DNA of 64,000 bases from a virus. Its lineage: Duplodnaviria > Caudoviricetes. Location of the stretch: positions 9,178 through 73,177 of IMG/VR virus record IMGVR_UViG_3300028129_000010; one strand, 5' to 3'. A model generated the notes under the pieces. It made no database searches. It saw only the letters and a list, made by a program, of their open reading frames with translations, and was not told the DNA's origin. Made by a program: the position numbers and the translations under genes. Shown in pieces: positions 8,791 to 63,879 of this stretch; position 1 is the stretch's first letter, and each line of letters opens with the position of its first letter.

Positions 8791-9402
8791 TTAACTGATA
8801 CCATCATTGTTATATGCACTTTTAATTTTAACACCATCATACAGTTGAACGCCTTCACCAAAACTGTCAATATTAGAGGAGCTTTCGTTACATTCAACAA
8901 CATACGGTGTTTTTTCTAATTCTTCTATTAATTCTTTATACCTAGCAATAATTTTTTGATTTTCTTTAAGTTTTTCTGTTAATTTAGTCACTTGTTCTTC
9001 ATTAACATTTGATACTGTTGTAGTTGTTTCACTTGTTGCTTCAAGTAAATCGGCACAATCAAACTTAAACATATAATCAAATGATACATCTAAACAACAT
9101 GTTTGGTTTTCATCAATATTAAATAAAGTACCATGGTTACCTTCTGGGTTTAATATGATTTTAAAATCATTTTTACCTTCACTTTCTGTTTTCCATAAAC
9201 ATTTTTGATTAACTATATCAAAATTGTAACCTAAAGCTTCACAACAAGGTTTAGTGTTGATTCTATATGTCATATTCCTATTTTCATAATCAAATAGAAA
9301 AACAGAGCCACTAGTATCTTCAACTAGTGTTAACTTGTTACTTACTATACTTTTTCGTGTTAAACAACTGGTCCTATAATCTTTTAAATCAAACTTAAAC
9401 AT
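8791..9402 (-). CDS. Hypothetical structural protein with Cys pairs and coiled coil (203 aa)
   Basis: ORF in the structural operon; PCC and TCC motifs; KLTEKLKENQKIIARYKELIEELEK is heptad-like. Confidence 0.5.
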   Translation of the reverse strand: MFKFDLKDYRTSCLTRKSIVSNKLTLVEDTSGSVFLFDYENRNMTYRINTKPCCEALGYNFDIVNQKCLWKTESEGKNDFKIILNPEGNHGTLFNIDENQTCCLDVSFDYMFKFDCADLLEATSETTTTVSNVNEEQVTKLTEKLKENQKIIARYKELIEELEKTPYVVECNESSSNIDSFGEGVQLYDGVKIKSAYNNDGIS

Positions 9403-20875: not shown

Positions 20876-22693
20876 TTACTTTACCCTTATTTTCACGTCA
20901 GTTTCTGGATATTTTATCTCAAACATACCTATTGGGTCACCGAAAAGTGTGTATTCACCCAATAAATCTATTTGTCTTGTTGCATCATCAATGTATGGTT
21001 GTGGTATCTCATTTGATGAGTATTTACCTTGACCAACCTTATTATAAACTCTAAGGTCAACAACATTTAAAACACCAGGAACATTATTAATATCCTCAAT
21101 TAGTTGAGCTAAATAAATGTTATCACCCATACCCCACTTATTTATATCAAAATAACTTGTTATCGTTGATATAGCTTGAGTTATTATTTCTGATTGTGAA
21201 AACTGCTTATCAACAAATAAATCAACTTCAAATCCTAAATTATATACTCTACCATTATCAACTTCAACATAATCATTAAGCATTCTATAATCAGATAAAT
21301 ATGTTGCTATATTTCTCTTAAGTGTTGTTGTTGATGTTGTACTTAATTTTGAACCGCTATCAAGAGTTAATGTATATATTTTAACCTTATTTTGTTCTTC
21401 GATAACATTATTTCTAAAAGGAATTCCAAATTCACCTGGCATTAATGCTATTCTTGTTTTATAATCTTCAATAGTTACACATCTTTCTTGAGATGCGAAA
21501 TTATATCTAACTAAGTTTCTTAATTCTTCAATACTAGGTTCATCTTTACCACCTAAAGCTGGTAACGGGTTATTTACTTTCAATGAATTAATTACTTGTT
21601 GGTTTATTGTAGTATTTGACCCATTAACAAACATTTCTTTTTTAGTTACAGTAGATATTGTGTTAGGTCCAACATTAGTGTCTGAACCACCACCAACTCT
21701 ATAAGAAATAAACATGGTTTTATTAGCACTAAGTGTAAGCCCTAACGCTGTATTATTAATAAAATCACCAATTCTATCAACCAACTGCTTATTTACGTCA
21801 AAATCACACAATGATGAAATATCTTCAGTACCACCACCAAAAATTATCTTAGTAAAACCATTATCTGTATATTCTCTTATAAATCTTTGGTCTATTCTTT
21901 TAAATTTACCTGGTTTTACTGTTGAATTATCACTTAATTTTGTATTATCTGGCACAAAAATTAAATCATCAGCTAATGCGTTAACCTCATACCATCTAAG
22001 GTCTTCATTGTAAAATTGACCTGTACTAGGTGTGGTTGTATAGTTTGTACCATCTAGCGTTATGATTGAATTAATAGATAAAACATTATCATCTGGTAAA
22101 ACAACCTCAAAGAATGGTCTAACATCAGCGGCACTTATAGTTCTACTGAATATCTTAGTTATACCATTATAAACCATTTCCCTCTTTGTAATAGTATAAT
22201 TTATTATGTTATCATTATTATCTAAATTAGGTACTACGAGTCTATTTGGTATTCCTCCAGTTGTAAATGGAGATGAGAAATCAATTTCTTCCATTGTTTC
22301 GAATATCTTACCAGCACCACTAACTTGAGCCCCAATAGATAATACTGGACAATAAGAAATATCAAACGTATCACCAAGTACTGGCACTGTTACTGAAAAG
22401 TCTACTATAGTTACTGACGGTTTCTTACCTGGGACTCTTAACCCAAAAGTTCTAGCCATAGCTAGTAATGAATTTCTTTCTTGAGCAAAATCGATTTGTG
22501 TCTCTTGGAACATTCTGTCAGTATGGAATGATAACATATCACCAACAGCAGCATTTAATTCTAAAAGCATCATACCAACTGACGCATCATTAAAATCATT
22601 AAAAATATCTGGGTAATATTCTCTTACAAAATTAACTAATTCTGTTCTTACATCAGCAAAGTTTCTACTATAATAATTTATTTTACGTGCCAT
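20876..22693 (-). CDS. Baseplate wedge subunit (T4 gp6 / P2 gpJ-like)
   Basis: MARKINYYSRNFADVRTEL...SVGMMLLELNAAVGDMLSFHTD...ETQIDFAQER; SYRVGGG...GG.DE...LRNLVRYNF.SQERCVT.EDY. Start moved from the track's TTG (22720) to the ATG at 22693. Confidence 0.85.
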   Translation of the reverse strand: MARKINYYSRNFADVRTELVNFVREYYPDIFNDFNDASVGMMLLELNAAVGDMLSFHTDRMFQETQIDFAQERNSLLAMARTFGLRVPGKKPSVTIVDFSVTVPVLGDTFDISYCPVLSIGAQVSGAGKIFETMEEIDFSSPFTTGGIPNRLVVPNLDNNDNIINYTITKREMVYNGITKIFSRTISAADVRPFFEVVLPDDNVLSINSIITLDGTNYTTTPSTGQFYNEDLRWYEVNALADDLIFVPDNTKLSDNSTVKPGKFKRIDQRFIREYTDNGFTKIIFGGGTEDISSLCDFDVNKQLVDRIGDFINNTALGLTLSANKTMFISYRVGGGSDTNVGPNTISTVTKKEMFVNGSNTTINQQVINSLKVNNPLPALGGKDEPSIEELRNLVRYNFASQERCVTIEDYKTRIALMPGEFGIPFRNNVIEEQNKVKIYTLTLDSGSKLSTTSTTTLKRNIATYLSDYRMLNDYVEVDNGRVYNLGFEVDLFVDKQFSQSEIITQAISTITSYFDINKWGMGDNIYLAQLIEDINNVPGVLNVVDLRVYNKVGQGKYSSNEIPQPYIDDATRQIDLLGEYTLFGDPIGMFEIKYPETDVKIRVK

Positions 22694-22732
22694 AACATTT
22701 CTTTTTACAATAAATATCAATATAACGATAAA

Positions 22733-22798: not shown

Positions 22799-24424
22799 AT
22801 GAAAAAAAAGTCTCAGGAAGAATTTATTAAGGAAATTATGAATATCCATAGTGATAAGTATGATTATTCAAAAGTTAAATATATAAATAACAATACTAAC
22901 GTTATTGTTATATGTCCAGAGCATGGTGAATTTTTAAAAAAACCAATACACTTGATTAATAGGGGACAAGGTTGTCCTTTATGTTCAAGAGATGAGATAA
23001 GTTCTAAACAAAGAATGGGTTTAAATAATTTTATAACCAAAGCTAAAGAAATACATGGTGATAAGTATGATTATTCTTTAGTTAATTATAAAAATAATAG
23101 AACTAAGGTTAAGATTGTGTGTCCAGAACATGGTGAGTTTGAGCAATTACCAACTAATCATTTAAGAGGTAAAGGGTGTAAGTATTGTGGTGGAACTAGT
23201 AAAATGGATACAAAACTTTTCATAATTAAGGCTAAAGAAATACATGGGGATAAATATGATTACTCTTTAGTTAATTATAAAGTAAGTAGAGACCCAGTAA
23301 CCATAATATGTTCAGAACATGGTGAGTTTGAACAAACACCTAATAATCATTTATCTAAGGGTCAAGGTTGTCCAAAATGTTTAGGTAAGATAATTGACAC
23401 TGAAACTTTTATTAATAAAGCTAAGGTTATTCATGGAGATAAATATGATTACTCTAAGGTAGAGTATTCTAGTCAATTTGAAAAAATTAAAATAATCTGT
23501 CCAGAACATGGTGAAATTAACGTAACACCTCATTATCATATAAATGGGTTTGGTTGTAAATCTTGTTCTAATAGTTTGTCTTTATTAGAAAAGTCTATAC
23601 ATTCTTTTATAACTGATTTAAAAATTAATTGTATTGAAAATGATAAAGCAGTGCTTAACGGTAAAGAGTTAGACATATATATACCATCACATAAGGTAGC
23701 CATTGAATTTAATGGTCTTTATTGGCATTCTAATTTATTTGTTGATAATGACTATCATTTAAATAAAACTGAAGAATGTGAGAAGTTAGGTATTCAACTT
23801 GTTCATATATTTGAAGATGAATGGCTCCATAATGAAGGTATTGTTAAATCTAGAATTAAGAATATACTAGGTCTTACTAAAAATAAATTTTATGCTAGAA
23901 AGTGTGAAATTAAGGAAGTACCAGTAAAGGTTAAAACTAAATTCTTAAATGATAATCACATACAAGGTGCCATTGGTAGTAAAGTAAATTTAGGTTTGTA
24001 TCATAATGATGAATTACTATCTATTATGACTTTTGGTAAAAGACCTATATTAAATTCGTTAGAATTTGAATTATTAAGGTTTTGTAATAAATTAGATACA
24101 AGTGTTGTTGGTGGTGCTTCTAAGTTACTTAAACACTTTATTAAACATTATCAACCGAAAGAAATAATAAGTTATGCTGATAGAAGGTGGAGTCAAGGTA
24201 ATATGTATGAACAGTTAAAATTTAAGTTTATTGAAAATACACAACCTAATTGGTTTGTAGTTAAAGGTAAATATAGAGAAAATAGAGTTAATTATCAAAA
24301 ACACAGGTTAGTTGAAATGGGTTATGATAAAAATAAAACAGCTAACCAAATACTTAATGAAAATAATATGTATAAAATATATGATTGTGGAACTAAAAAA
24401 TTTACTTTATATTTACAATATTAA
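22799..24424 (+). mobile_element. Hef-like free-standing homing endonuclease: four Zn-finger-like repeats, PD-(D/E)xK (Vsr-like) nuclease, C-terminal GNAT/Mom-like domain (541 aa)
   Basis: Four HxDKYDYS.V.Y...C(P/S)EHGE...GC..C repeats; ELDIYIPSHKVAIEFNGLYWH; ELLRFCNKLDTSVVGGASKLL...ISYADRRWS.G.MY. Inserted antisense between two baseplate genes with its own promoter. Confidence 0.75.
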
Positions 24425-24934: not shown

Positions 24935-27103
24935 CTACGCAGAGCATCCACCACCCGCACAGTCGAACATTGAGTTCTCTGGTTTCTTAACAATATTAAC
25001 TTTTGCATTATCAGAAGCTGATAGTTTCTTATTCTTACCTAATTTGGATTCGGTTCTGGTATAATAAGCACCAGTCTTAAGTCCGTTTTTCCAAGCGAAT
25101 ACTAAAGCACTAGATATCTTACTGTATTTAGCATCTCTATGATAAACATTCATACTTTGGGATTGGTCTACGAATTTATTTCTAATAATAGCCAAATCTA
25201 ACAAAACTTTTTGTGGTATTTCCCAAACTGTTTTATATCTATACCTAATATCTTGTGGTATTTCTTGTATTTCTTGCACACTACCTTCATTTGCGATAAT
25301 TTGGTCTCTAATATCTGCTGTCCAAAGACCTAATTCATCTAATTCTCTAGCTAAGTATTTATTTACCACAATAAACTCACCATCACCAACCATTCTTGTG
25401 AATATATTAGATGTTACAGGTTCAAAACATTCAAAAGAACCTAAAAGTATAGCACTTGATGCCGTAGGCATTAAACCAATTAAAAGAGAATTTCTCATAG
25501 GAATTGGTACACCTTTTTCCATTGGAGACCATCCATCAACATATGTTTCACCTTTAGAATACTTAGAACCTTCCCATGCTGGGTAGTTTTTACCTTCTTC
25601 CATGGCTAATTCCATACTTTCTTCAACAGCAGCCTTATACATTGTTTCAAATATGTCATGATTCCATTGTTTAGCCTCTTCACTTTCAAAAGAAATCTTT
25701 TTCTTAGCAAAGAAATCTGCTAAACCAGCAACACCGACAGCAATTGCTCTTTGGTCTTCACCAGCTTTCTTACTCCAATCATCTGACCATTTATTATTAT
25801 CAATAACTTTATTTAATGCTCTTACTAAAACCTTAACAGATTTAGCAATACTCTTTAAAGAATCATGTTCAGCTAAATTAACTGATGCAAGTGTACATTG
25901 AGGTGTATACCCTGGTAAACTTGCTTGCATGATTTCAATACATAAATTACTTTGGTTGATAATACCGATATTATCTTGCATATTAATTTTATTAGCATTG
26001 TCTTTAAAGAAAACGTATGGTGTTCCACTCTCTACTTGAGAGCGAATAATAGAATCCCAAATCTTTTTAGGGTCAACTTCTTCACCCAACCCTAACATTA
26101 CTGCTTCATTATAAACTTCTTTAAATTCTTCACCATGAATTTCATAAAATGGTTTTAATCCCGCTTTTTTAATGTCGTTAGGACAAAATAAGTAGTATTT
26201 ATTACCATTTATTAAAGCATTCATGAATACATCATCTATGGTTACAGCAGTAAATAAATCTCTAGCTCTATTTAATTCTTCACCAATAGGTAGTCTTAAC
26301 TCTAAGAATGGTAAAATATCTTTATGCCATGTCGATAGATATAAAGCACAACTACCTGACCTATTACCTTGCTTAAAGAATCTCATTTTAGATTGTACCA
26401 TATCTGCAAATCTAACAACACCACCAGCATAACCTTTAAAACTACTTACCATGCTCTTAGAGCTCCTAAGTCTATCAATACAAAGACCAATACCAGAACC
26501 TTCTTTAGAACCATGAGCAATCTTATCTAGAGTAGCGTTAATACCTTCAATACTATCATCCATTAATGTAGTTAAATTACAACTAATTAAACCATTTCTA
26601 CCTTCAATACCAGAGTTTGATAAAATAGGTGTAGCAAAATTAACTTTTTTTTCGTATAGTTCATTAAGTAACTTTCTTCTTTCTTTAAAAGAATCTGGAT
26701 ATAAATGGTTTGCCACTCTACCGTGCATCATAGAGGGGATTTCAATAGGTTTTTTATCTTGATTTTTTTGGGAGTATTTTGTTAAAAATGTAGAAGCAGC
26801 AAAAGAGTCAAATTTTTCATCAACTTCTTTTGTTTCCACTTCAAGTATCTTAGCTTGTCTAGAGATAAGTATTCTACCACCCAATATAGCGTAATCTGGA
26901 TGTTCAATCTGTAAATCAGCAGATTGGAACGCTATAATCTCATCGATATCTGTAGCGGTCATCTCATCCTTAATATGTGGGACAACTTTTTGAAACAATT
27001 TATCAGCCTTAATATTTAAATCTTTAGATTGTTGTTTAATCCTAGTCAATATTTTATTAGGCATAAACGATTGTTTCGAGCCATCTCTTTTTATAATTTT
27101 CAT
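24935..27103 (-). CDS. nrdA: Ribonucleotide reductase class Ia, alpha subunit with ATP cone (722 aa)
   Basis: MKIIKRDGS ATP cone; ISCNL; QSNLCIE (N-C-E catalytic triad); CTLASVN; MPTASS; KTGAYY; C-terminal CAGGGC shuttle. Confidence 0.97.
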   Translation of the reverse strand: MKIIKRDGSKQSFMPNKILTRIKQQSKDLNIKADKLFQKVVPHIKDEMTATDIDEIIAFQSADLQIEHPDYAILGGRILISRQAKILEVETKEVDEKFDSFAASTFLTKYSQKNQDKKPIEIPSMMHGRVANHLYPDSFKERRKLLNELYEKKVNFATPILSNSGIEGRNGLISCNLTTLMDDSIEGINATLDKIAHGSKEGSGIGLCIDRLRSSKSMVSSFKGYAGGVVRFADMVQSKMRFFKQGNRSGSCALYLSTWHKDILPFLELRLPIGEELNRARDLFTAVTIDDVFMNALINGNKYYLFCPNDIKKAGLKPFYEIHGEEFKEVYNEAVMLGLGEEVDPKKIWDSIIRSQVESGTPYVFFKDNANKINMQDNIGIINQSNLCIEIMQASLPGYTPQCTLASVNLAEHDSLKSIAKSVKVLVRALNKVIDNNKWSDDWSKKAGEDQRAIAVGVAGLADFFAKKKISFESEEAKQWNHDIFETMYKAAVEESMELAMEEGKNYPAWEGSKYSKGETYVDGWSPMEKGVPIPMRNSLLIGLMPTASSAILLGSFECFEPVTSNIFTRMVGDGEFIVVNKYLARELDELGLWTADIRDQIIANEGSVQEIQEIPQDIRYRYKTVWEIPQKVLLDLAIIRNKFVDQSQSMNVYHRDAKYSKISSALVFAWKNGLKTGAYYTRTESKLGKNKKLSASDNAKVNIVKKPENSMFDCAGGGCSA

Positions 27104-56805: not shown

Positions 56806-57990
<1,185 letters not shown>

Positions 57991-57995
57991 AAAAT

Positions 57996-58835
57996 ATGAA
58001 AGATTTAATAAAACTTTATGAAAACTTTTGTTTTTTAAAGGGTATCCCTTTTAAATTAGATGATAGTGTTAAGAGTTATGATGATACAACTCTTTTTTGT
58101 CCAGCTGGTATGCAACAATTTAAGGACAAATTTAAAAATCCTGACAACACCACAATAGCAAATATTCAATCTTGTATTAGACTTAATGATTTGGATGAAA
58201 TTGGTGATGGCACCCATATGTTACATTTTAAAATGATTGGGTTATTTTCTTTTGGTGAAATGACACTTAATGAGGCTGTTGATTTTTGGGTGGAGTTTAT
58301 TAGGGGTTACTTAGGTATAAAGATTGATTATGTTACGATTCATCCAGATAAATTTGATAATTGGAAGTGGTTATATGAACGTCATCGTATCCCTATTAAA
58401 TTAGATAGTGAATGTATTTGGTCTGATGGTGAAATGGGTGGTTATTGTACAGAGTTTTATCATGATAATGTTGAGATTGGTAATATCGTAAATACAATGG
58501 ATAAGTTTATTGATGTTGGTTTTGGATTCTCCAGAATTAATGATATTATTAATGGTAAAAATGAATTAACAAAAAACGATATACTTATTGACGCTATTAA
58601 CAAGATAATTGAATCTGGATTTAAACCAGGACCACAAAAACAAGGTTACATACTTAGGAAACTTCTCAGACAACTATATGTAGGTGGTGGTAGTATTGAA
58701 CACCCATTATTTACAAAAGAGGTTGAAAGACAAGAAAAGGCTAAGGTTAGATACGAAAGACTTAAAGATAAACATTCTGATAAACCAAAAGAATGGTGGT
58801 TTGATACTCATGGTATTGACTTAGACGAAATGTAA
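57996..58835 (+). CDS. Minimal alanyl-tRNA-synthetase-like protein (catalytic core plus trimmed helical domain, no editing or C-Ala domain; 279 aa)
   Basis: DDTTLFCPAGMQQFK (motif 1); QSCIRLNDLDEIG...HFKMIGLFSFG (motif 2); EIGNIV; IDVGFGFSRI (motif 3); GYILRKLLR; FDTHG. Confidence 0.85.
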   Translation: MKDLIKLYENFCFLKGIPFKLDDSVKSYDDTTLFCPAGMQQFKDKFKNPDNTTIANIQSCIRLNDLDEIGDGTHMLHFKMIGLFSFGEMTLNEAVDFWVEFIRGYLGIKIDYVTIHPDKFDNWKWLYERHRIPIKLDSECIWSDGEMGGYCTEFYHDNVEIGNIVNTMDKFIDVGFGFSRINDIINGKNELTKNDILIDAINKIIESGFKPGPQKQGYILRKLLRQLYVGGGSIEHPLFTKEVERQEKAKVRYERLKDKHSDKPKEWWFDTHGIDLDEM

Positions 58836-58884: not shown

Positions 58885-59565
58885 ATGAATATAATATTAT
58901 TAATAAGAAGTTATGATAGAGGTAATTACTTAATAAATACGATATCTTCTATAATTAAATCAGATATTAATTTATGCGATAAAAGATACATATATGACGA
59001 TAACTCAAAAGATAAAATAGTAAAAGAAATATTAGAAGGAAAAGATTTAAAATTACCAAACAAAGAATTTGATGTAGTTATTGGTGATAAAAATTTAGGT
59101 TGTAAGTATTCATTCATAGAAGCATTAAAACATATTAAAAACGAAAATAAAGATAATAAAGATTATCTAGTTATTACTATTGATAATGATGTTATAGTCC
59201 AGAAAGACTGGATTAATAAAACATTAGATATGTATGATAAAATAAAAAATATCTTTAATACTGATAATTTTTTATTAACAGGTTTTAACCCAACAAACTC
59301 TCATTTAAACATGATTAAAGATTATGGTAATTTCTACCAAAAAGAAACTTGTGGCGGTATTAATTTAATATTCCATAGTAATATGATAGATTTTATTATG
59401 GAAGGATGGGAGAAAGGTGATAATGACTGGGGTGTTATAGATAAATTAAAAGAGAAAGGATTTCCCTTATTTTGTTTTAAAGAATCTATAATTAACCACA
59501 TAGGTAAGTTAGGTTTATTTTCAGGTAATTTGGGTTATGACGTAGATAAAAAATTTAAACCTTAA
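58885..59565 (+). CDS. Glycosyltransferase, GT-A fold / GT2-like (226 aa)
   Basis: IRSYDR..YL..TI.SI; IYDDNSKD; N.G; ITIDNDVIV (DxD); DWG; INHIG. Confidence 0.8.
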   Translation: MNIILLIRSYDRGNYLINTISSIIKSDINLCDKRYIYDDNSKDKIVKEILEGKDLKLPNKEFDVVIGDKNLGCKYSFIEALKHIKNENKDNKDYLVITIDNDVIVQKDWINKTLDMYDKIKNIFNTDNFLLTGFNPTNSHLNMIKDYGNFYQKETCGGINLIFHSNMIDFIMEGWEKGDNDWGVIDKLKEKGFPLFCFKESIINHIGKLGLFSGNLGYDVDKKFKP

Positions 59566-60197
59566 ATATCGTAACCATATTTTTTAGATATTCCTTTTAA
59601 TTCATTATATAACTTACTATTTTTAATATCATTTATTAAAGTTTCGTTATCTATTTTTATCACCTTTTCTTCTTTTTTTGTGTTTACCTTTTTATCTAAT
59701 GGTTTTATTTTTTTACCTAAAAATTTGGATAGTGAATCATAATTAATATCCTCTAAATTTAATATTAATCTGTTTAAATTATAACCCTCAATCATTTTAA
59801 TCCAACCAATGTAATAAGACATAGTTTTTTCAACTGAGGATTCATAATTTAAATCTACATATTTTTTAATTAATTGCACATATTCTGAGTTTTTCATATT
59901 TTCATCACTAAAAACATCTAATTCAACCCATGATTTAATCACATTTATTGGGTTTCTAACTATATGGATAAATTTTATATTTTCGTTATATCCTTTAATT
60001 GTTGTTATAAAAGGTACCGATAACCAACTACTCTCTGATTTTAAATTGCTAGTTATAATTTGTTTTCTATAAGATTCAAGTGTTGCTGGAACACCAAAAA
60101 CAGATTCGTGACCGCAACGAATATTATTCATAGTCAAAAGCTCTGACATAAATCCAGTCCCACTCCTACCTGTTCCAATAATTAAATAATCAATCAT
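59562..60197 (-). CDS. PAPS-dependent sulfotransferase-like protein (211 aa)
   Basis: IIGTGRSGTGFMSELL (5'-PSB loop); CGHE; IHIVRNP..VIKS (3'-PB); LEDI. Confidence 0.75.
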   Translation of the reverse strand: MIDYLIIGTGRSGTGFMSELLTMNNIRCGHESVFGVPATLESYRKQIITSNLKSESSWLSVPFITTIKGYNENIKFIHIVRNPINVIKSWVELDVFSDENMKNSEYVQLIKKYVDLNYESSVEKTMSYYIGWIKMIEGYNLNRLILNLEDINYDSLSKFLGKKIKPLDKKVNTKKEEKVIKIDNETLINDIKNSKLYNELKGISKKYGYDI

Positions 60198-60210
60198 ACT
60201 TCAAATTTTT

Positions 60211-63200
60211 TTAAAAATCCCAACCATCCCTTAAATGACATCTTACATAACCAAATAAATGTATTTGTTTACCATTTTTATATTTGTCTAACATAGTTTT
60301 ATAAAACAAGATATCCTCACTTGTATTACCTTCACTAACTACATTAGTCCATTTAACATCACATGTTTTTTTATGTGATATTAAACCAGGTGATTGTAAA
60401 ATCAAACTTCTTTTAACATAACTCCTAACCCACCTACTATCTAATCCATTAATCAAAGATGATTTATTAGTTAAATGTCTATCAAAAAGCACATTATAAA
60501 ATTTAACCTTATTAGGTGTTAATACCGCAAAATTATCCCACCAACATCTATTTATTATCCAATCTAAATTAAAATTATATTCCCAATACTTTAAAAGTAT
60601 CTCTAAATAATTTTTTGTTAAAAAATCATCACTATCCATATAAGTTATAATATCACCCTCAGACATATCAACACCTATTTGTCTAGGTTCACCAACATAA
60701 TTTATAGTTTCAGAGTCTTTTTCATACATTTTTTTTGAGCTATTCTCATATAACTTAAATTTAACTCTATCATTTTCCTTATAATTTTCATTATATAATT
60801 TTTCAGTAATTTTACAATTATCTGAAATAACAATTAACTCTGTATTCTTATTAGTTTGGCTTAAAAATGAGTTAACCGCCCTAATAAACTTTCTTTCTGG
60901 TTCAGTTCTACTCCCTGGGTAATCACCTAAATAAGATTGCATTACAACGGATATTTTTATACCTTTCTTACGATTGTAAGATTTTCTCCAATGCCCTACA
61001 TGATTATGTATAAAATATTCATCACATTCATTTTTGGTTAAATATTTTGGTTTATCATCTAACTTGTCAAAAACCTCACTTACAACGTCTGGACCAGTTG
61101 TATACAAAATGTCATAATCTTCCTTTATCTCTAAATCTTTTCTTTCCTTACACAAATCTAATATTTTTTGCATATTTTTAGAATGTGGTTTAGACATCAT
61201 AAAATAGTTTGAAATCCTAAGATTACATTCAGGTATATTATTTCTAATAGGTAATTTTTTAGTGGTTTCACAAAAATAATCATCAGTTGTTGTCTCCTCA
61301 AAAAATAAGTCTTCTAAATGATTATTTTCTTCATATGTTTTATAAAACCCTTTTTTACTTAATATATCTAAATCAACATATATACCACCAAAATACTTTA
61401 AAATGATATATCTAGCATAATCAGATTTTTGTATATTATGTACATAACCTGTGTAAATATCTACCTCTTCCTCATTCATTATTTTTAAAACATCACTTTC
61501 CCTCCAAAGTATTGTATGAAAGTTTGGGTTATATTTTTTAAACTCTTTTAAATCTGTTCTTGAGTTACTTGGGTATTCATTATCATATAACAAAAGTCTA
61601 TGAATTATTGGTGGTATTTTATCTTGATTCTTATATTCTTTTAAAATGTAATTTACCCCCATAAAATCATGATAAAAATCATAAGACACTTCTTCATTAG
61701 TTTCTTCTGAGTCAGACTTAATAACATCAACCAGTGAAGTCTTTGGTGATAATATCATACCTTCATTTTCCTTTAAGTATTCTCTAATTAATAGTTTATA
61801 ATTTTCACTATTAAATAAATCTTTTAAACCCTCATATAATTCAGACTTAAACCCAATATTTTTAAAATCTAAATTAGAATGTGCTATATAATCCTTTTTA
61901 AAATGAATAACCTTACGTAAAGTTTCATTAGTTAAATCTTTAACAAAACCAGTTATTATAGAATTATCATATAGTTTATCACTAAAATACTCAAATGTTT
62001 TAAATAATTCAACTAACCAATCTTGTCTCATTATTAAATCATTATCTAACTTTATTAAGTAATCACACTTAAAGTTATTATATAGAATATCTAAACCTAA
62101 TTTTTGATTTTGAAGTTTTGTATCTTTATTTGTTTTTGAAATTTTAATAGTATTAAATTTTGTGAATTTATAATTATTAATTAAATCTATAACATCTTTA
62201 GGTAAATGGTTATCACATATAAATAAAACTAATAATTTTTTATTTATAATCACATTATTTAAACTATCTAACATTTTTTTAGTTATATGATAATTATCAG
62301 TTATGTGAATAAATAAACCACTATCATATTCTAAATTAATATTTTGATATTCTTCTGGTGTGTAACCCTTATCATTTATTAAAACACCATCAAAAGAATC
62401 GAATAAAGGTAAATTGTTTTTAGTGTTAAGGTTGAAATATGAAACACCTTCGTATTTTTTACTATATTTTATTATTCTTTCATAAAGGTTATTATAACCC
62501 CATGTATTATCTGAATGGACTCTATAAACATAAAGTTCTGGTTTATATAAGACTGATAAATCGTCTTTTATATTTTCAATAAAAGTAGTATCTTCACCTT
62601 TTTTTAACGATGGATATAAAGTTTTAAGTTCGGACTTTTTATACATAAAAGAACCCTCCCAACCAATAAATGAAATTCTTTTACATTCTAATAATTCATT
62701 TTTTACATTATCATAAACTAACCAACTACTTAATATTGACCCATTTTTATTATTTATTTTTAAGTCTCTAAATTGTTCCCAAAGTCTTAAAGGGTGATAC
62801 CAATCATCATCGTCCCATTGACATACATATTCACCACTAGATTCATTTATAGATATATTTCTTAACTCACCTAAAGTTTTTTTATTTTTTGATGAATCTA
62901 CTTCAATAAATTTAATATCGATATTATTTTTAAATTCTTTAATTACCTTGTTTATCTCAGTATTATCGTTCTCGTAAATAATTATTAATTCCTTATTTGG
63001 GTATATTTGTTTATTATAACATGTTATAGTGTTTTTTAATAAATCATAACCATTTTTAGTGACACATAAACAAGATATTTTAGGTAATAAAACCATCCCA
63101 CTTTTTTTGTAATATTCTTTAGTATGGTTTGAATTTTCACTATAATTTAAATTTAATAAATCATGAATTGCCACCACTTTTTTTATGTATTCCAATGAAG

Positions 63201-63879
63201 AGTAATGTTTATCTTGCCACCAAGTACCATCATATAAATGCATTAAGTATGAATATTGAACGTTTTTTGAAATAACCCCATTTGATATTTCATAAAAAGT
63301 CATAGGGTTAAAATATAAATTATCTAAAATAGTTATTTCATTTTTATTTTCATATCTTTCATAAACCCTATTAAAAAAAAGAGGCCCAGTCATATTTAAA
63401 ACATCATCAGTATCGTTTGAATTAATTTTATCTGAATCTATGTTTCTAACAATATCATCTATCAATTCTTTTATAAAACTAGTATTAGGTTTGGAAATAA
63501 TTACAGCATTAGATAGAATATAGTCAGTGTTAAAATTTAAAGCGTTTTTCCTATCCTCCTCACATATAACAACATCATTTATATTCAATAAATCTTCAAT
63601 ACTCTTTAAAGGTAATACATCTAAATCAACATATATCCCACCAAATTTATAAACATATAAGAGTCTTATAAAATCTAACTTCATAACAACCCTATCAAAT
63701 TTATCTATAATGATTTTATATTGTGGAAAATATTTATTTACAAACGATTCATTAGTTTTATCACTATAGAATTTTACTTTTAACCCTTTATTTAATAAAA
63801 CCCACCTCTTTAAAATGAATTCTTGTTTTTCTGTTAAGTTTTCATCTTTCCAAGTAATATGTAATATTTTATTGTTCAT
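60211..63879 (-). CDS. Multidomain glycosyltransferase: GT32-like, GT2, GT2-like, GT32-like, GT2 (1222 aa)
   Basis: DxD motifs: GGIYVDLDV, EYVCQWDDDDW, DYLIKLDND, GGIYVDLDI, ITYMDSDDF; KISCLCVT and KISVVMQSY GT2 N-termini; IPPIIHR GT32 start. Confidence 0.85.
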   Translation of the reverse strand: MNNKILHITWKDENLTEKQEFILKRWVLLNKGLKVKFYSDKTNESFVNKYFPQYKIIIDKFDRVVMKLDFIRLLYVYKFGGIYVDLDVLPLKSIEDLLNINDVVICEEDRKNALNFNTDYILSNAVIISKPNTSFIKELIDDIVRNIDSDKINSNDTDDVLNMTGPLFFNRVYERYENKNEITILDNLYFNPMTFYEISNGVISKNVQYSYLMHLYDGTWWQDKHYSSLEYIKKVVAIHDLLNLNYSENSNHTKEYYKKSGMVLLPKISCLCVTKNGYDLLKNTITCYNKQIYPNKELIIIYENDNTEINKVIKEFKNNIDIKFIEVDSSKNKKTLGELRNISINESSGEYVCQWDDDDWYHPLRLWEQFRDLKINNKNGSILSSWLVYDNVKNELLECKRISFIGWEGSFMYKKSELKTLYPSLKKGEDTTFIENIKDDLSVLYKPELYVYRVHSDNTWGYNNLYERIIKYSKKYEGVSYFNLNTKNNLPLFDSFDGVLINDKGYTPEEYQNINLEYDSGLFIHITDNYHITKKMLDSLNNVIINKKLLVLFICDNHLPKDVIDLINNYKFTKFNTIKISKTNKDTKLQNQKLGLDILYNNFKCDYLIKLDNDLIMRQDWLVELFKTFEYFSDKLYDNSIITGFVKDLTNETLRKVIHFKKDYIAHSNLDFKNIGFKSELYEGLKDLFNSENYKLLIREYLKENEGMILSPKTSLVDVIKSDSEETNEEVSYDFYHDFMGVNYILKEYKNQDKIPPIIHRLLLYDNEYPSNSRTDLKEFKKYNPNFHTILWRESDVLKIMNEEEVDIYTGYVHNIQKSDYARYIILKYFGGIYVDLDILSKKGFYKTYEENNHLEDLFFEETTTDDYFCETTKKLPIRNNIPECNLRISNYFMMSKPHSKNMQKILDLCKERKDLEIKEDYDILYTTGPDVVSEVFDKLDDKPKYLTKNECDEYFIHNHVGHWRKSYNRKKGIKISVVMQSYLGDYPGSRTEPERKFIRAVNSFLSQTNKNTELIVISDNCKITEKLYNENYKENDRVKFKLYENSSKKMYEKDSETINYVGEPRQIGVDMSEGDIITYMDSDDFLTKNYLEILLKYWEYNFNLDWIINRCWWDNFAVLTPNKVKFYNVLFDRHLTNKSSLINGLDSRWVRSYVKRSLILQSPGLISHKKTCDVKWTNVVSEGNTSEDILFYKTMLDKYKNGKQIHLFGYVRCHLRDGWDF

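Follow-up and report, generated by a model that had tools for sequence, protein, structure and literature searches.

How far can an alanyl-tRNA synthetase (AlaRS) be reduced while still recognizing its transfer RNA (tRNA)? This question is raised by a gene encoding a protein of 279 amino acids (aa) in a 64,000-nucleotide stretch of viral DNA, referred to below as the window (positions 9,178 to 73,177 of the IMG/VR record IMGVR_UViG_3300028129_000010; coordinates of the features are collected in Table 1). In textbooks, AlaRS exemplifies a tRNA identity that depends on one base pair of the acceptor stem, and its architecture of four domains is considered close to universal. To our knowledge, the smallest AlaRS enzymes shown to work are the engineered Escherichia coli fragment 461N and the 461-aa enzyme of Tupanvirus. 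The protein described here was initially annotated from the sequence as a minimal AlaRS-type phage enzyme, and the profile match, the fold and the surrounding phage genes agree with that description. It is probably a free-standing, editing-free minimal AlaRS that charges phage or host tRNA-Ala via the acceptor stem alone.

The family assignment is based on sequence profiles and on structure. The protein matches the Pfam family PF01411 (tRNA-synt_2c) with E=6e-20 and 71.7 bits (gathering cut-off 30.3). The NCBIfam equivalog model for alaS (TIGR00344) gives 79.9 bits, far under its cut-off of 457. In a phmmer comparison with Protein Data Bank (PDB) sequences, Aquifex AlaRS is matched in three collinear stretches (residues 25–160, 213–247 and 276–322). 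An AlphaFold2 (AF2) model, for which the 37-sequence family alignment served as input, reaches a predicted local distance difference test score (pLDDT) of 94.7 and a predicted template modelling score (pTM) of 0.87. Its best matches in the PDB, by sequence as well as by structure, are catalytic fragments of AlaRS (Foldseek TMq 0.76–0.78). In VIA-align, 278 of the 279 model residues superpose on the aminoacylation fragment of AlaRS with Z of about 25 (E. coli 1–411, Aquifex 1–400). Since nearly the whole chain is placed on AlaRS residues 1 to about 401–411, the connecting loops have been deleted, and 279 residues span what canonical AlaRS spans in about 410. Nothing in the phage protein corresponds to the editing or C-Ala domain; the chain ends after the element equivalent to E. 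coli D400, and tblastn with the C-terminal half of E. coli AlaRS found no match in the window. The protein is an AlaRS catalytic core with two remnants of the tRNA-recognition domain and without an editing or C-Ala domain, and the annotated order of motifs 1–3, with shortened connections, is confirmed.

The active site was compared residue by residue in two alignments. The first (A1) contains the window protein and 14 family members together with residues 1–461 of E. coli AlaS (NC_000913.3); the second (A2) contains 37 sequences, with identities to the window protein down to 28%. All the strings quoted in the initial annotation (TLFCPAGMQQFK, RLNDLDEIGDGTHMLHFKMIG, DVGFGFSR, PGPQKQGYILRKLLR and WWFDTHG) are present. 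In the region of motif 1, residues T32, L33, F34, A37, G38 and M39 are invariant in A1. Motif 2 had been described as altered, which is correct in part: THMLHFKMIG does differ from the canonical string (R85→T73 and E91→K79), and the GGKH loop, including K73, is deleted. However, this string is only the second half of the motif, and the description did not single out the catalytic arginine. The loss of that arginine, which a comparison of RHHTFFEM with THMLHFKM might indicate, was rejected, because the E. coli residue concerned, R69, belongs to the upstream string CVRAGG and corresponds to R62, which is invariant across the family. The pocket residues W142, E153, E160, N163 and V165 are invariant in all 15 members of A1. 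Motif 3 is invariant in all 37 sequences of A2; the equivalent of D173 binds the alpha-amino group, and R180 is the motif-3 arginine. Even at the low identities of A2, the invariant columns are again the catalytic ones. Judged by alignment, the ATP- and alanine-binding residues known from the AlaRS of E. coli or Aquifex are all kept and are invariant in the family.

Conservation at this level is accompanied by selection. Between the window gene and its 93%-identical homolog in L083, the ratio of nonsynonymous to synonymous substitution rates (dN/dS) is 0.09 at a dS of 0.48, which is not saturated. The condensed AlaRS is under strong purifying selection, and a degenerate relic, an outcome allowed for in the initial annotation, is therefore excluded. 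A non-catalytic protein, whether a relic, a decoy or a regulator that binds alanine, ATP or tRNA without turnover, would fit the unusually small size and the missing loops implicated in handling the tRNA 3′ end (the K73 loop). It is hardly conceivable in view of the dN/dS value, of the confidently predicted fold and of the fact that the residues invariant in the 37 sequences are precisely the catalytic ones.

The protein is not an isolated case. A protein homology search returned 997 homologs at E<=1e-3, and the 120 best of these have 259–309 aa and at least 55% identity and come mostly from marine and freshwater metagenomes. The source databases label the homologs simply as "alanyl-tRNA synthetase". 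A HMMER search against 1.84 billion representatives gave 46 clusters (at the 50% identity level) with E<1e-30, nearly all of them shorter than 330 aa, whereas canonical AlaRS was reached only at about 1e-17 to 1e-20. The initial annotation had proposed a hidden Markov model comparison and a phylogeny as checks. In the maximum-likelihood tree, one branch separates 35 of the 37 mini sequences from canonical AlaRS, and the side with the canonical enzymes receives a Shimodaira–Hasegawa-like approximate likelihood ratio (SH-aLRT) support of 98. In IMG/VR, at least 106 relatives lie on viral contigs of up to 607 kb. Among GenBank phages there is one close match only, in the 634,780-bp huge phage LR745206.1 (56% identity). 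The species-representative prokaryote genomes contain close homologs in only a few members of Rhizobium, Neorhizobium and Hoeflea, plus one short contig of a Flavobacterium metagenome-assembled genome. The proteins form a distinct family of about 280 aa, found mostly in large and huge phages. No description of a phage AlaRS of about 280 aa was found in the literature searched; phage aminoacyl-tRNA synthetases are reported in general terms only (Al-Shayeb et al. 2020).

The rhizobial chromosomal copies (L003–L009) are 53–56% identical to the phage protein, and a canonical alaS is also present in these genomes. The Neorhizobium copy adjoins serA and a Tim44-like gene, and the R. leguminosarum copy adjoins pdxA, an iron-containing alcohol dehydrogenase gene and an ATP-binding cassette (ABC) transporter gene. 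A shared rhizobial context was considered and rejected, as the neighbours differ between L005 and L009.

Within the tRNA-recognition domain, the elements that are kept face the acceptor stem. They are the basic GY(V/I)LRKLLR helix, in which R221, K222 and R225 (E. coli R310, R311 and R314) are retained, and the D-T-x-G element. Of the two residues that read the G3:U70 pair, the Asp is kept as D270 and the Asn is replaced by P213, as had been annotated. The Asp is found in 15 of 15 members of A1, and some distant viral homologs have N, E or G at this position. Six deep-branching mini members of A2 (P0144, P0149, P0163, P0166, P0167 and P0216) still have an ADHxR-type helix, which is gone from the crown group that includes the window protein. 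This distribution suggests that the reduction of AlaRS in the mini family was stepwise.

The Asn-to-Pro change had led the initial annotation to propose a changed or relaxed acceptor specificity, by which tRNAs without G3:U70, or other RNAs, would be alanylated. The replaced Asn contacts U70, the motif-2 residue K73 is deleted and R85 changed, and the editing domain is absent, all of which would be compatible with such a shift. However, the position of E. coli N303 is N in 41, P in 17 and H in three of 63 viral homologs, and the residues alternate throughout the family. Pro-type enzymes (L088, L123 and L149) sit beside canonical tRNA-Ala genes with G3:U70 and A73, directly so in L088 and in L123, where two such genes flank the enzyme. 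Relatives with the identical PGPQKQGY string (G002 and G003) encode canonical tRNA-Ala(UGC), and D270 is kept in the phage protein. The mini-AlaRS of Tupanvirus (TuAlaRS) has Pro at the Asn site and Thr at the Asp site and is nevertheless G3:U70-specific (PMC10036535); TuAlaRS thus works without either residue. Consequently, the change to Pro is no evidence for relaxed identity, and a relaxed or shifted specificity of this origin is very improbable. It is also unlikely that the enzyme of the Pro-type clade is a repurposed core that alanylates a non-canonical target, either a tRNA or tRNA-like RNA lacking G3:U70 or a non-RNA acceptor supplied by variable accessory genes.

The genomic setting of the family points to tRNA. 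When ARAGORN was run on 60 viral loci, the mini-AlaRS gene was found inside tRNA arrays in many of them, and 268 of 275 tRNAs lie on the same strand as the gene. After removal of near-duplicate loci, tRNA-Ala accounts for 11 of the 44 tRNAs within 1 kb of the gene and for 15 of the 197 further off (Fisher p=0.002); this enrichment is of moderate size and comes from loci that are related by descent, so it lends support without deciding the matter. Individual arrangements are close: the gene is flanked by two tRNA-Ala genes in L123, is preceded by three within 1.1 kb upstream in L137, lies 68 nt from one in L140 and has a tRNA-Ala(UGC) gene 408 nt downstream in LR745206.1. Of the phage tRNA-Ala genes near the enzyme, 32 are well formed, and every one of these has G1:C72, G2:C71, G3:U70 and the discriminator base A73. 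The tRNA set of the phage in the window was deduced from the records of its relatives. G002 and G003 have sets of seven to eight tRNA genes, each of which includes a canonical G3:U70 tRNA-Ala(UGC). The contig of a further relative, G001 (232.5 kb, 88% complete according to CheckV), stops just before the position at which G002 carries its tRNA-Ala. The charging of phage tRNAs, one of the roles suggested in the initial annotation, is plausible from this array context.

Some tRNA calls near the gene are unusual. In one clade (L133, L150 and L131), an odd 88-nt tRNA, called as tRNA-Ala(AGC) by ARAGORN, lies 0.6–1.3 kb upstream of the mini-AlaRS. Its 3:70 pair is U3:A70 instead of G3:U70, its variable arm is long and its anticodon stem contains G.G mismatches; a miscall, a gene with an intron and a non-canonical tRNA are all conceivable. 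The array of a 332-kb viral contig (L155) contains two tRNAs with a CUA anticodon, called "tRNA-Pyl"; this contig also has a distant mini-AlaRS and a transfer-messenger RNA (tmRNA), and TAG recoding in this phage is hinted at. A role in tmRNA charging was dropped, because the permuted-tmRNA calls that adjoin the gene in L088 and L091, which overlap with tRNA genes, are probably artefacts.

In the proposed mechanism, the condensed AlaRS would make alanyl adenylate (Ala-AMP) and pass the alanine to the 3′ end of tRNA-Ala. It would read only the acceptor stem (G3:U70 and A73), as the 461-aa Tupanvirus enzyme does. Large phages with tRNA sets of their own would probably use it to maintain a supply of charged tRNA-Ala, phage-encoded as well as host, in the course of infection. 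Mischarging with Ser or Gly might be tolerated, or might be corrected in trans by host AlaRS or AlaX.

Several observations weigh against this explanation, in addition to the limits of the tRNA-Ala enrichment given above. According to work from the Schimmel laboratory, E. coli AlaRS fragments shorter than 461N reportedly do not aminoacylate, and 368N only forms the adenylate. Even 461N binds tRNA poorly (PMC10036535). From the recognition domain of the phage protein, the ADHxR helix and about 50 more residues (roughly E. coli 336–384) are missing, and motif 2 lacks K73 and has Thr in place of R85. It is acidic overall, with an isoelectric point (pI) of 5.4. No tRNA gene was found in the 64-kb window, nor within 10 kb of the gene in the five closest relatives. 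The rhizobial copies lie in unrelated, non-phage contexts, and the family is therefore not strictly tied to phage translation.

In a second explanation, the protein would be the catalytic subunit of a two-part synthetase and would need a separately encoded tRNA-binding partner from the phage or the host. In size and fold core it resembles the alpha subunit of glycyl-tRNA synthetase (GlyRS), of about 290 aa, which needs a beta subunit (bioRxiv 10.1101/2023.05.29.542759). The alpha subunit of the split AlaRS of Nanoarchaeum equitans is weak on its own and is not G3:U70-specific (PMC10036535), and the intrinsic RNA affinity of an acidic protein may be low. The evidence makes such a partnership doubtful. 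No homolog of tRNA_SAD (PF07973) or of E. coli AlaRS 442–875 was found in the window, in the relatives G001–G004 or in LR745206.1, although one of the editing/C-terminal searches lacked a positive control and is weak alone. The ordinary split AlaRS that the initial annotation had considered is thus not what these genomes encode as far as they were searched. Furthermore, no protein-coding neighbour is conserved across clades, and the elements that read the acceptor stem lie on the same polypeptide as the active site.

The preferred explanation, a free-standing enzyme for tRNA-Ala, must also be weighed against an alanyl transferase for a non-tRNA acceptor, such as a small molecule, glycan, protein or nucleic acid, with its own Ala-AMP or host Ala-tRNA-Ala as the donor. 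The protein AcmF of ascamycin biosynthesis provides a precedent: it is truncated and AlaRS-like, has neither an editing nor a C-Ala domain, and moves the alanyl group from Ala-tRNA-Ala to another nucleophile (PMC12945691). In the window, genes for a family 2 glycosyltransferase (GT2), a sulfotransferase and a multi-glycosyltransferase (multi-GT) of 1222 aa adjoin the AlaRS gene, and the initial annotation had named the transfer of alanine or lactate to a glycan or protein among its suggestions. The rhizobial copies outside any translation context and the heavily trimmed recognition domain would also fit. However, AcmF has lost most of its activation residues (N219Q, D232E), whereas N163, D173, R62 and R180 are invariant in the phage family. 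A tblastn search of 79 related loci, those of the 93%-identical relatives among them, gave no homolog of the three glycan genes within 10 kb of the AlaRS gene. In L083, the genes downstream encode a DUF2827 protein, a Laminin_G_3 protein and leucine-rich repeat (LRR) proteins. In another clade, the mini-AlaRS lies between RecA and a 5′-3′ exonuclease, near ClpP, DnaB and ribonucleotide reductase (RNR). No carrier protein or other protein-coding neighbour conserved across the mini-AlaRS family was found, and what the gene does associate with is tRNA arrays and tRNA-Ala genes. The glycan island appears to be a variable insertion of local extent, so the suggestion of glycan alanylation is not upheld, and a non-tRNA acceptor in general is improbable.

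The remaining features of the window concern the setting of the gene. The ORF starts with ATG 5 nt past the stop of the co-oriented upstream gene and ends with TAA, and a 49-nt spacer precedes the next gene. The window encodes a tail sheath protein (PHROG 23, E=2.6e-61), a baseplate wedge protein, RNR and a DnaB-like helicase, which together indicate a large myovirus-type phage. The source of the condensed AlaRS is a large marine phage. The protein encoded directly upstream consists of a J-domain-like N-terminus joined by a run of 11 Asn to a methyltransferase, and the PDB sequences most similar to it are those of DOT1 and of archaeal protein-lysine methyltransferases (aKMT). L083, the closest relative, has three separate genes in the same order for a J-domain protein, a PrsW-family protease and a 186-aa methyltransferase. 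The pair of DOT1-like methyltransferase and mini-AlaRS is retained only in the four closest loci among the 79 related loci searched by tblastn. The glycan island adjoins the tail sheath gene and looks like a variable accessory insertion. The HNH gene is the sole plus-strand gene amid minus-strand genes, between the baseplate wedge and RNR large-subunit genes, and is probably a mobile insertion. A T4-type late promoter was considered and rejected: TATAAATA stands before the upstream gene, but the window contains 26 copies of the motif where 24.8 are expected, which is no enrichment. A scan for sigma-70 promoters and terminators gave nothing above chance, and PADLOC returned no match.

Table 1. 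Positions of the condensed AlaRS gene, its conserved elements and other features discussed. Positions without a locus prefix refer to the window.
Feature	Position	Strand	Details
Condensed AlaRS gene, complete, 279 aa	57996..58835	+	Open reading frame (ORF), PF01411, AF2 model, VIA alignment
Motif 1 region, TLFCPAGMQQFK	58089..58124	+	A37/M39 = E. coli A41/M43
Motif 2, RLNDLDEIGDGTHMLHFKMIG	58179..58241	+	R62 (= E. coli R69), D65 (= D76), H74 (= H86), F78 (= F90) and M80 kept
Alanine/ATP pocket strands	58419..58490	+	W142 (= W170), E153 (= E183), E160 (= E209), N163 (= N212), V165 (= V214)
Motif 3, DVGFGFSR	58512..58535	+	D173 (= D235), G175 (= G237), G177 (= G239), R180 (= R242)
Retained recognition-domain helix, PGPQKQGYILRKLLR	58626..58670	+	P213 in place of the Asn E. 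coli N303
Retained WWFDTHG element	58794..58814	+	D270 = E. coli D400, second G3:U70-reading residue
394-aa protein directly upstream of the AlaRS gene	56806-57990	+	HPD-containing J-domain-like N-terminus and DOT1-like class I methyltransferase
GT2	58885-59565	+	Downstream of the AlaRS gene
Sulfotransferase	59562-60197	-	Glycan island
Multi-glycosyltransferase, 1222 aa	60211-63879	-	Glycan island
Glycan island, whole	58885-63879		
Baseplate wedge gene	20876-22720		Flanks the HNH gene
541-aa HNH/homing-endonuclease-family protein	22799-24424	+	PHROG 559, E=1.9e-145; weak Mom-like region
RNR large-subunit gene	24935-27103		Flanks the HNH gene
tRNA-Ala(UGC) in G002	L165:464-538		
tRNA-Ala(UGC) in G003	L163:722-796		
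Odd 88-nt tRNA	L133:9338-9425; L150:9338-9425; L131:8567-8654		
Two CUA-anticodon tRNAs	L155:8152-8438		

If the preferred explanation is true, the phage protein, relying on nothing but the acceptor stem for recognition, would rank as the smallest natural AlaRS and as one of the smallest synthetases in nature. A natural, strongly conserved and widespread version of 279 aa would mark the parts of AlaRS that are truly needed for G3:U70-directed alanylation. Because the whole active site is kept together with just two elements facing the acceptor stem, the "operational RNA code" becomes directly testable with a natural protein. Synthetic biology would gain a very small scaffold. In the biology of phages, the protein would be a specific and common addition to the translation toolkit of large phages, beside their tRNA arrays, and it leads one to ask how phages cope with an AlaRS that does not edit.

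Five known systems resemble the phage protein in some respects. The GlyRS alpha subunit (GlyQ, about 290–300 aa) is of similar size and has the homologous class II core of the AlaRS/GlyRS subclass. However, the phage protein has no Pfam match to PF02091 (GlyRS alpha) at E<=1, its model superposes on GlyRS alpha with Z of about 16 over residues 1–205 only (VIA), and its C-terminal 75 residues match the recognition helices of AlaRS. In addition, GlyQ needs GlyS, whereas no partner was found for the phage protein. AcmF belongs to a biosynthetic cluster, and no such cluster accompanies the phage gene. The small AlaRS of candidate phyla radiation (CPR) and DPANN organisms (bioRxiv 10.1101/2023.05.29.542759) is also naturally reduced, but it keeps the catalytic, recognition (ATL) and editing domains, whereas in the phage protein the editing domain is absent and the recognition domain incomplete. 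The E. coli fragments (461N, 368N, and 1–441 in PDB 3HXU/3HY1) are the best structural matches (Z 25, TMq 0.77) and have the same ATP and alanine residues. They are laboratory truncations from the C-terminus, whereas the phage protein fits E. coli 1 to about 411 into its chain by internal deletions.

The closest parallel in kind is TuAlaRS (461 aa; Antika et al. 2023, PMC10036535), which is likewise a virus-encoded, free-standing AlaRS core without editing and C-Ala domains and has Pro at the Asn site. G3:U70 tRNA-Ala genes are encoded by Tupanvirus itself and, in the present case, by close relatives of the phage. The activity of TuAlaRS has been demonstrated, and that of the phage protein is predicted from its sequence. 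The phage protein belongs to a separate, phage-borne family; the tree covers mini sequences of this family and canonical AlaRS. TuAlaRS, from a giant virus that infects amoebae, retains both the catalytic and the tRNA-recognition domain in full, and Thr occupies its Asp site. In the phage protein, about 130 further residues are gone from inside both domains, and the Asp is kept.

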